NCBI GenBank assembly: GCA_017453985.1
Contig: JAFTDT010000111.1
Location: 7,679-71,678 of the forward strand
Source of the DNA: Clostridia bacterium
GTDB taxonomy: Bacteria > Bacillota > Clostridia > Oscillospirales > Butyricicoccaceae
DNA length: 64,000 nt
Direction of reading: 5' to 3'
Below are positions 51,027-51,227 of the stretch, in pieces; position 1 is the stretch's first letter, and each line of letters starts with the position of its first letter. A model generated the notes under the pieces. That model was not told the origin of the DNA and made no database searches. It saw only the letters and a program-made list of their open reading frames with translations. The position numbers and the translations under genes are program-made.

Positions 51027-51227
51027 ATGAACAAGAAGAACAAGAAGAGCATCGAGGCGCTGCAAAAGGCAAAAAAAGCAGTAGAGCAGGCAAGTGACGC
51101 GCTTATGTCCGCCATAAAGGAGCTGGATGACAGCGAGCTTGATAAGGTCGCCGGCGGCGGAGAATTTGACGATAACCCGGGTATCATCGAGCATCCGTAT
51201 GATCCCAAAGACGACGGCAGATATTGA
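51027..51227 (+). CDS. Double-glycine-leader precursor peptide (66 aa), bacteriocin/pheromone-like
   Basis: ATG at 51027 lies 8 nt after AAAGGAG. Leader ...IKELDDSELDKVAGG has hydrophobic residues at -4, -7, -12, -15 and Glu at -8. Predicted core: GEFDDNPGIIEHPYDPKDDGRY. Confidence 0.75.
   Translation: MNKKNKKSIEALQKAKKAVEQASDALMSAIKELDDSELDKVAGGGEFDDNPGIIEHPYDPKDDGRY

Follow-up and report, generated by a model that had tools for sequence, protein, structure and literature searches.

Introduction

Peptidase-containing ABC transporters (PCATs) carry a C39 domain that removes double-glycine (GG) leaders, and GG-leader peptides act in Gram-positive signaling, as exemplified by ComC/ComAB/ComDE, BlpC, and PlnA. 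Export by a PCAT is usually read as the hallmark of a bacteriocin or of a pheromone. In RaxX/RaxB of Xanthomonas, a PCAT-exported GG-leader peptide is a receptor ligand rather than a toxin (10.1101/442517), and in gut Oscillospiraceae the MAM of Faecalibacterium is a GG-processed protein encoded near a PCAT (PMC8836110). A further export cassette, defined by the families TIGR03794, TIGR03796, and TIGR03797, has been described together with NHLP and Nif11 peptides made by ribosomes and then post-translationally modified (RiPPs) (Haft et al., 2010; PMC2887384). Here we analyze a 66-amino-acid GG-leader precursor encoded in a 64,000-nucleotide stretch of a Clostridia bacterium contig (JAFTDT010000111.1), which we refer to as the window, and describe the peptide family to which it belongs, which fits neither the bacteriocin nor the pheromone reading. 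An earlier reading of the same stretch (the original prediction) had singled out the open reading frame (ORF) of this precursor from the sequence alone.

Results

A Family of Anionic Peptides With Double-Glycine Leaders

The 66-residue ORF and the good ribosome-binding site in front of it, both pointed out in the original prediction, are borne out by comparison with related sequences. A first protein search returned three homologs, at 98, 73, and 71% identity, and third codon positions carry most of the differences from the homologs at 71–73% identity (10/7/25, 12/10/24, and 8/5/21 differences at codon positions 1/2/3), the ratio of nonsynonymous to synonymous substitution rates (dN/dS; Nei-Gojobori) being 0.14–0.18. 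The segment leading from the ribosome-binding site to the start codon, GAAAGGAGCAGTTA(T/C)CATG, is invariant in these homologs save for one T/C position, and DNA similarity collapses directly past the stop codon when the window is aligned with three related loci (L001, L003, and L013; related loci are designated here by L numbers). Because dN/dS is low, conservation ends at the stop codon, and the ribosome-binding site is invariant, sequence conservation indicates that the ORF is a genuine gene under selection. A region with the fold energy of a strong intrinsic terminator follows the gene (z-score of −5.2 for positions 51225–51345). A GC-rich hairpin that precedes the gene is unchanged in sequence in L001, L003, and L013 despite their differing flanks (DNA alignment) and represents a possible partial terminator or mRNA 3′-end stabilizer ahead of the peptide gene.

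The C-terminal end of the leader, IKELDDSELDKVAGG, displays the GG register exactly as claimed originally: hydrophobic side chains occupy −15, −12, −7, and −4, Glu takes −8, and the Gly-Gly pair stands at −2/−1 (I30-K-E-L33-D-D-S-E37-L38-D-K-V41-A-G43-G44). These are the GG-leader sequence features of a PCAT substrate, comprising the V41-A-G43-G44 | G45 junction together with V41, L38, L33, I30, and E37. The 22-residue core that follows, GEFDDNPGIIEHPYDPKDDGRY, has the composition first reported for it, with seven acidic and two basic residues (plus one His), three Pro, and neither Cys, Ser, nor Thr, for a net charge of −5. In an AlphaFold2 model built with the family alignment (mean pLDDT 78), the leader forms two helices (residues 3–32 and 35–42) and the core is a coil. 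A relaxed regular expression applied to all six frames detected no other GG-leader ORF in the window. Among named families, L_biotic_typeA (PF04604; 20.8 bits against a cut-off of 21.7) and bacteriocin_sig (TIGR01847; 14.2 against 15.7) are near misses confined to the leader, the XyeA triceptide profile (TIGR04495) yields a weak leader resemblance (13.2 bits against a cut-off of 33; E = 0.073), and the NHLP and Nif11 leader profiles (TIGR03793 and TIGR03798) do not match the peptide at E ≤ 0.1. Assignment to L_biotic_typeA, bacteriocin_sig, or XyeA was rejected, since all leader scores in Pfam and NCBIfam lie below threshold.

An exhaustive search of 1.84 billion representatives (50% clustering) with a four-sequence profile retrieved 40 small proteins at E ≤ 1e-3, and a 35-sequence profile retrieved 76 clusters (90%) from a 5.8-billion-protein set, where the sole name is “hypothetical protein.” All members present a [VI]-x-G-[GAS] cleavage site, with an invariant Gly at −2 and Gly, Ala, or Ser at −1 (39 aligned members), and the hydrophobic/acidic leader pattern (−4, −7, −8, −12, and −15) is retained family-wide. 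Across 104 parsed members, the median leader has 42 residues and the median core exactly 22, which is also the length of most cores; median net charge is −4, with 94 members acidic, Cys occurs in only two cores, and Ser and Thr are unconserved. The shared core motif is [FW]-D-[DE]-V-P-x-V-x-E-H-x-Y-D-P, and the commonest core reads G-[EAS]-[FW]-D-[DE]-V-P-x-V-[DI]-E-H-x-Y-D-P-x-D-x-x-R-Y or is a variant ending in DPDTIKKT. Peptide sequences of the family include GEFDDNPGIIEHPYDPK and the a2 form GEWDDVPPVDEHPYDPDT..., and a “YPV” subtype bears Pro-rich tails at the core end. In a further subtype, termed b, the core is G-[SND]-P-F-x-D-V-P-R-P-x-P-x-P-[IL]-D-P-x-x-R-E-N-G, where Pro and Ile/Leu stand in for His and Tyr, and these two residues are therefore not universal in the family. 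The alignments instead indicate that the universal trait is a set of hydrophobic anchors spaced between acidic and Pro residues. Across lineages, core residues 1–16 are better conserved than either the C39 exporter of the locus (ABC1; 51–58%) or its giant surface protein (41–48%), both described below.

Genome matches to the family come from metagenome-assembled genomes (MAGs) of uncultured rumen and gut Clostridia (Clostridiales RUG432 and RUG13494, Clostridia RGIG7792, Christensenellales, and one Bacillota MAG) and from one Erysipelotrichaceae MAG (L017). The latter encodes a 46-residue member, MPEKTKNVRLVKDEELDKVSGGSALDEVPVVDEHDYDENVRDKIDP (L017, 1314–1454), which together with P0105 has a short leader and which is followed by genes for a transmembrane (TM) protein and an AAA ATPase. 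Searchable literature contained no description of the core motif or of the gene module in which it occurs. The peptide founds an unnamed, previously undescribed family of anionic GG-leader peptides.

The Peptide Gene Is Linked to a Two-ABC Exporter and a Giant Surface Protein

The same-strand C39 exporter that the original prediction had placed about 10 kb upstream is accompanied by a second ABC protein, and the two genes (ABC1 and ABC2) end 11.7 and 9.5 kb upstream of the peptide start, respectively. ABC1 matches Peptidase_C39 (E = 8.8e-33) and, with 947 bits, exceeds the TIGR03796 cut-off of 853. Its alignments with PCAT1 (4ry2; E = 1.5e-103) and ComA (8hf4) are full-length, and it carries the C39 motifs QMEALEC31GAAC, with the Cys, then NHFVV and NDPA. 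ABC2 scores 686 bits against the TIGR03797 cut-off of 709, and the HlyD-like protein encoded ahead of the pair matches the NHLP-system secretion protein TIGR03794 (E = 2.5e-8) over N-terminal profile positions 1–91 of 421 only. Checked as a three-gene set, of which ABC1 alone passes its cut-off, these profile matches point to an NHLP-type two-ABC cassette with a truncated HlyD-like partner. Such a truncation would fit an envelope with one membrane, the type suggested by the SLH wall anchors of the giant protein. Homologs of the HlyD-like protein adjoin ABC1 or ABC2 in L027, L028, L043, and L055, and the C39 exporter is predicted to be the cognate processing and export machine of the peptide.

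In the window, genes for a STAS protein, a PP2C phosphatase, an RsbW-like kinase, the short HlyD-like protein, ABC1, ABC2, the giant protein, and the peptide form an operon-like plus-strand string in which neighbors are tightly spaced or overlap (Table 1). In lineages with peptides just 35–60% identical, the peptide gene again lies directly 3′ of a giant homolog that is 36–55% identical over essentially its whole length, bears SLH or dockerin anchors, and is preceded by ABC2, ABC1, and the HlyD-like gene; loci with this window-like order are L014, L016, L018–L023, L031, and L043/L044. The full identity range of giant homologs flanking the peptide gene in other lineages is 36–72%. Gene order is permuted in some genomes with the gene set kept. 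L027 and L028 display the order giant, peptide, (HlyD-like), ABC1, ABC2, and in L027 the peptide start overlaps the stop of the giant gene while the peptide stop abuts the start of ABC1. Short homologous ORFs next to orthologous exporters, for which the original prediction had proposed a search, do occur in related loci, and in L027 and L028 they are immediately adjacent. In subtype-b loci (L029/L030 and L046/L047), the peptide gene precedes a distant giant homolog that matches in its N-terminal part only (24–38%). Overall, the peptide gene adjoins a giant homolog in essentially every lineage, with the exporter either upstream (window, L014–L023, and L043) or downstream (L027 and L028). The neighbors conserved across lineages are limited to the HlyD-like protein, ABC1, ABC2, and the giant protein, and those downstream vary from locus to locus (a CTP synthase gene, a PP2C gene, a Tn916-like element, or a tRNA).

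In all 13 loci that have an intact peptide gene and both flanks visible, and which represent about six lineages, the ABC pair occurs in cis. In L037 (19362–19560) and L038 (18430–18630), the peptide gene is a pseudogene, with a 1-nt deletion in a C/G run and TGA changed to TGG at the stop, and two SLH/lipoprotein genes precede the giant gene in place of the ABC pair. L033 and L039/L045 encode a giant homolog with neither ABC pair nor peptide, and no credible GG peptide was found beside the peptide-less or very distant giant homologs of L033, L039, L045, and L052–L054. The peptide is intact only where the ABC pair is present, and decayed or missing where it is not, which argues that it is functionally tied to the exporter.

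That no modification-enzyme gene is adjacent, as noted originally, applies more broadly, for Pfam scans and precomputed Pfam annotation (including that of the near-identical L007) reveal none among the window genes checked and none conserved in related loci; radical-SAM, YcaO, LanM, ATP-grasp, and sulfotransferase genes in particular are lacking from the scans of the window and related loci. Because there is no conserved maturase and the core has no modifiable Cys, Ser, or Thr, the 22-mer is expected to be linear and unmodified. The same observations make it improbable that the peptide is a RiPP precursor whose conserved core (E-H-x-Y-D and the C-terminal R-Y) is cross-linked, hydroxylated, or sulfated on Tyr through the action of an unlinked enzyme or of some giant-protein domain. 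A highly conserved core behind a long, conserved leader helix is typical of RiPP precursors, the leader weakly resembles those of XyeA triceptides and type-A lantibiotics, the exporter is of the cassette type found with NHLP and Nif11 RiPPs, and acidic residues border the Tyr, which is also the case in sulfated RaxX. Set against these features, the XyeA score falls far under its cut-off, members with short leaders exist, and the replacement of His and Tyr in subtype b leaves no residue-specific chemistry that could be universal.

The genomic context also bears on a still less probable function, that of an unusual anionic bacteriocin exported to kill competitors. A GG leader with a PCAT is the standard export route of class II bacteriocins and microcins, and the bacteriocin_sig score comes close to its threshold. 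No conserved small membrane immunity gene lies beside the peptide gene in related loci, however, and the sole small ORF adjacent to it in the window (51727–52230) is variable and missing from L009 and L010. The core itself is strongly acidic, as in most of the family, lacks any amphipathic or hydrophobic segment and Cys, is predicted to be disordered, and is conserved across Clostridia families instead of diversified. The doubt that the original prediction cast on a classical cationic bacteriocin fits this family-wide picture.

Architecture of the Giant Surface Protein

The giant protein comprises, in order, a Sec signal, Calx-beta, a hydrophobic long-strand region (residues 1726–1864), a beta-propeller-like region, Ig-like and Big_2 domains, and three SLH domains, with only the SLH, Calx-beta, and Big_2 portions recognizable in sequence searches. 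The middle of the protein holds two strongly hydrophobic segments (window positions 46762–47178; residues ~1726–1864). AlphaFold2 models them, with low confidence, as beta-strands of 20–28 residues, and they may serve as a pore-like or membrane-inserting element or else make up a buried core. A model of residues 1560–2750 based on eight sequences (mean pLDDT 53) contains long beta-strands, a propeller-like part, and confident Ig-like domains. The best Foldseek matches for this segment, all with low TM-scores, are integrin alpha subunits, sialidase propellers, and transglutaminase Ig barrels, and they hint at a ligand-binding propeller.

Giant homologs differ in their anchors and contexts. In L020 and L031, a C-terminal type I dockerin replaces the SLH domains, suggesting two modes of display for the same giant family, one on the wall and the other through a cohesin partner. 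These two homologs also carry CLIPPER_2/DUF7507, an isopeptide-bond Ig-like type of domain (PMC12617251), in a variable insert; the domain was undetected in the giant protein of the window. Its presence in some homologs, together with the V-D-E-H-x-Y-D-P stretch of the core, had raised the idea of a SpyTag-like trans-isopeptide link, which is unsupported speculation and was set aside. Neither a regular expression nor a core-only hidden Markov model (HMM) located the core motif inside giant proteins, as autoinhibition or mimicry would predict. A 3101-residue giant paralog in L039 (5019–14324) and L045 (10001–19306) is 60% identical over residues 1356–2898 of the window protein and has several multi-TM proteins at its flanks instead of the peptide and the ABC pair. 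The giant family hence also occurs in a different, peptide-free context.

The Calx-beta and SLH domains of the giant neighbor, taken with seven acidic residues and a His within 22 residues, would suit a freely secreted chelator of Ca2+ or another metal that serves the wall or S-layer and has no specific protein partner. Of all the functions considered, we regard this one as the most remote, because the family conserves not mere acidity but hydrophobic and Pro residues at fixed places within an ordered motif, and there is no conserved EF-hand or DxDxDG-type spacing.

Sensors and Regulators Around the Module

Directly before the exporter genes, positions 33696–36590 encode a complete STAS/PP2C/RsbW partner-switching unit, and no sigma factor gene is adjacent to it. 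The string of STAS, dCache-PP2C, RsbW, HlyD-like, and ABC1 genes is repeated in L055. PP2C domains 48–50% identical to that of the window, fused to a 5TMR-LYT sensor, are encoded right after the peptide in L015 and L023/L024. The window also encodes a two-component kinase-regulator pair, 19 kb upstream of the peptide gene; its kinase has six TM segments with short loops. Orthologs of the pair lie divergently beside the peptide in L029 (44/41% identity), the only locus in which it is directly adjacent, and upstream of the giant gene in L037 and L038 (56/56%), and in other loci none was seen. The visible flanks of several loci harbor no sensor (5 kb upstream in L043; downstream in L014/L020).

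Such an arrangement raises the possibility, which we consider the main alternative reading, plausible though less likely than not, that the 22-mer is an autoinducer or autocrine signal sensed by the dCache (or 5TMR-LYT) PP2C phosphatase, which would drive the STAS/RsbW switch, or by the six-TM kinase with its regulator, either of which would control expression of the exporter/giant/peptide string. The classical Gram-positive layout for peptide signaling combines a GG leader and a PCAT with a multi-TM kinase and its regulator. The six TM segments and short loops of the kinase, the immediate proximity of the partner-switching genes to the exporter in the window and L055, the PP2C orthologs following the peptide in L015, L023, and L024, and the kinase-regulator orthologs of L029 and L037 all favor it. 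Nevertheless, no sensor is as tightly linked to the peptide as the giant gene is, and sensors are missing from several visible flanks. L037 keeps kinase and regulator although its peptide is a pseudogene, the kinase is of the PF06580 type and the regulator is not LytTR, unlike in known GG-pheromone systems, and pheromones usually diversify fast, whereas the core is here the most conserved part of the module.

Features and Wider Surroundings of the Locus

Table 1. Features of the peptide locus, in window coordinates.
Feature	Position	Strand	Basis or remark
Two-component pair	29994..32059	+	Kinase: 6 TM + His_kinase PF06580 + HATPase_c; regulator: receiver + weak winged-helix (Trans_reg_C) match
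STAS-domain anti-sigma antagonist, 99 aa	33696..33995	+	Sequence; same gene, same position in L055
Membrane sensor phosphatase, dCache_1 + HAMP + SpoIIE/PP2C, TM segments	33992..36166	+	Same gene in L055
RsbW/SpoIIAB-like anti-sigma serine kinase (HATPase_c_2)	36156..36590	+	Domain match
Short HlyD-like membrane protein, 138 aa, one TM segment	36705..37121	+	TIGR03794
ABC1, C39-peptidase/permease/ATPase exporter (PCAT)	37130..39319	+	Pfam Peptidase_C39, ABC_membrane, ABC_tran; TIGR03796
ABC2, permease/ATPase partner, no peptidase domain	39339..41558	+	TIGR03797, Pfam
Giant secreted surface protein, 3110 aa	41587..50919	+	Sec signal, Calx-beta, Big_2, SLH matches
GC-rich hairpin, 10-bp stem, no T tract on + strand	50932..50955	+	Just 3′ of the giant gene's stop codon
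Ribosome-binding site AAAGGAG	51012-51018	+	8 nt before ATG
Precursor peptide gene	51027..51227	+	ATG start, 66 codons + TGA; codon-level conservation, homologs
Leader, residues 1-44, ends V-A-G-G	51027..51158	+	Family-conserved cleavage register; AlphaFold2 model
Core, residues 45-66, predicted released 22-mer GEFDDNPGIIEHPYDPKDDGRY	51159..51224	+	Family motif, constant length
Intrinsic terminator GGACGGCAGGA-TTTT-TCCTGCCGTCC then TTTTT	51302..51336	+	Predicted end of the peptide transcript; fold

Past the peptide gene, a tRNA-Trp (51582–51657) is followed by a low-GC ORF of 167 residues (51727–52230) that has no family match and is absent from the near-identical L009 and L010. At the same position after the peptide, L001–L006 carry HTH, sigma70_r4, and DUF3789 genes resembling a Tn916-like element, and the module's 3′ edge resembles a hot spot for integration. 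Farther downstream, on the minus strand (52364–60016), lies a nitrogenase-like cluster encoding a flavodoxin, two Oxidored_nitro proteins (NifD/K-like), and a NifH-like ATPase, interleaved with an ABC_tran/FecCD/Peripla_BP_2 uptake system and followed by an AraC regulator; the annotation derives from the near-identical L007, and the cluster is unrelated to the peptide. A ribosomal protein L10 leader (Rfam RF00557, 50.4 bits) spans positions 20903–21038, and ATP synthase, ribosomal-protein, and enolase genes are found elsewhere in the window, which indicates that the locus is chromosomal and not on a mobile element. At the opposite end (29–3961), a protein with an M14 carboxypeptidase domain is encoded beside one of the S9 prolyl-oligopeptidase family, 47 kb from the Pro-rich peptide and with no evidence of linkage to it.

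Discussion

The results outlined above suggest a sequence of events for the peptide. The 66-residue precursor, with its helical GG leader, is encoded last in the operon-like plus-strand string, as both sequence and comparative genomics show. If ABC1 works in the established way of C39 PCATs, of which PCAT1 and ComA are examples, its C39 domain would bind the leader and cut after Gly44; together with the short HlyD-like protein, ABC1 and ABC2, probably as a heterodimer, would carry the core through the membrane. The released product would be a linear, unmodified, disordered, and strongly acidic 22-mer, and, in the least certain step, it would serve the co-encoded giant protein as an extracellular linear-motif ligand, its spaced hydrophobic anchors (F/W, V, V/I, and Y) docking, possibly with Ca2+, into a conserved domain outside the cell. 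The peptide would modulate the giant protein and not be needed to build it. Taken as a whole, this chain, from dedicated cargo of the neighboring exporter through an unmodified 22-mer to a docking ligand or modulator of the giant protein, is a tentative proposal that we hold to be somewhat short of probable. A role as ligand of the giant protein is favored because no feature of the peptide gene is more constant than its position beside the giant gene, because core residues 1–16 are more conserved than any module protein, and because the fixed length and the disordered, anchor-spaced core resemble a linear binding motif.

Several observations weigh against this proposal. Giant homologs without a peptide (L033 and L039/L045), or with a decayed one (L037), indicate that the peptide is not required for the giant protein as such. 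Conversely, in L017 no recognizable giant homolog is seen in the visible 1.3 kb upstream of the peptide, making this the only context that departs from the module. The assignment of a propeller in the giant protein is itself tentative because the segment is poorly modeled. The sensor genes recurring near the module, whether PP2C (window, L055, L015, and L023/L024) or six-TM kinase with regulator (window, L029, and L037), fit signaling equally well, and an unlinked enzyme may modify the peptide. Among the functions put forward in the original prediction, the link to the giant wall protein is the strongest association found, while signal, cation binder, giant ligand, and sensor ligand are all still candidate roles. 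The RiPP with an unlinked maturase, the anionic bacteriocin, and the free cation binder are all less likely, ranking below the giant ligand and the autocrine signal. The fixed 22-residue core of a conserved family, the NHLP-type two-ABC cassette, and the STAS/PP2C/RsbW unit before the exporter had gone unremarked in the original prediction.

Should the peptide be a ligand of the giant protein, the module might constitute a two-route surface system, in which a Sec-exported giant protein, anchored to the wall or to a cellulosome, is armed, gated, or switched by a docking peptide delivered through the PCAT, with the supply of peptide under the partner-switching unit; we put this forward as a conjecture that is more doubtful than the docking proposal itself. 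No account was found in which a peptide exported by a PCAT serves an adhesin-like giant protein as its dedicated ligand or trans-acting subunit. The anionic, disordered core keeps a fixed length and is better conserved than its exporter; genomically, it is bound to a protein that ranks among the largest on the surface of uncultured Clostridia of the gut and rumen, organisms that matter for fiber degradation and gut ecology. If it is indeed a ligand or switch of the giant protein, it would provide the first functional handle on a conserved module of HlyD-like protein, ABC1, ABC2, giant protein, and peptide, to which the STAS/PP2C/RsbW unit is often added. The locus further suggests that two-ABC “NHLP-type” cassettes in Firmicutes are not automatically RiPP or bacteriocin exporters. 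The peptide is short and can be synthesized, so the hypothesis is directly testable.

Compared with established PCAT substrates (ComC/ComA, PCAT1 with CtA, class II bacteriocins, and microcins), the peptide shares the leader register, a helical leader, and a cognate C39 exporter that aligns over its full length, but departs from them in its core, an anionic, disordered, Pro-rich segment that holds to 22 residues and stays conserved between distant lineages. The module likewise differs from theirs in its two-gene ABC1/ABC2 pair and in having as constant partner a surface protein of ~3,000 residues, and not an immunity gene or a kinase-regulator pair. Class II bacteriocins are set apart by the acidic coil of the mature peptide and the lack of a linked immunity gene, lanthipeptides and Cys-dependent RiPPs by the absence of Cys and of Ser/Thr from the core, and XyeA triceptides by the sub-threshold score and the lack of a radical-SAM gene in the window scans. 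The ComCDE, BlpCHR, and PlnABCD pheromone systems couple an HPK10 kinase to a LytTR regulator, whereas here a PF06580 kinase is coupled to a receiver regulator with a weak Trans_reg_C match. The NHLP/Nif11 export cassette is matched by ABC1 above and by ABC2 just below cut-off, and by a TIGR03794-like gene in first position, but the leader of the peptide has no homology to the NHLP and Nif11 leaders (E ≤ 0.1), no TOMM or lanthipeptide maturase is present, and the HlyD-like protein is cut to 138 residues.

The nearest functional analogies would be RaxX/RaxB and MAM with its PCAT. RaxX is likewise a PCAT-processed, acidic, linear peptide rich in Pro, His, Tyr, and Asp, and its role is receptor binding. 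It differs in requiring a linked sulfotransferase, RaxST, which has no counterpart among the annotated neighbors here, in lacking sequence homology, and in belonging to a Gram-negative plant pathogen and addressing a host receptor. The MAM locus is, like the present one, a locus of gut Clostridia, with HlyD-like and Ig-domain genes nearby, and the cargo proposed for its PCAT is an envelope- or host-related product other than a bacteriocin. MAM itself is a protein of ~135 residues without similarity to the 22-mer, and no giant SLH or dockerin protein has been reported as its constant partner, the feature that most consistently accompanies the peptides described here.

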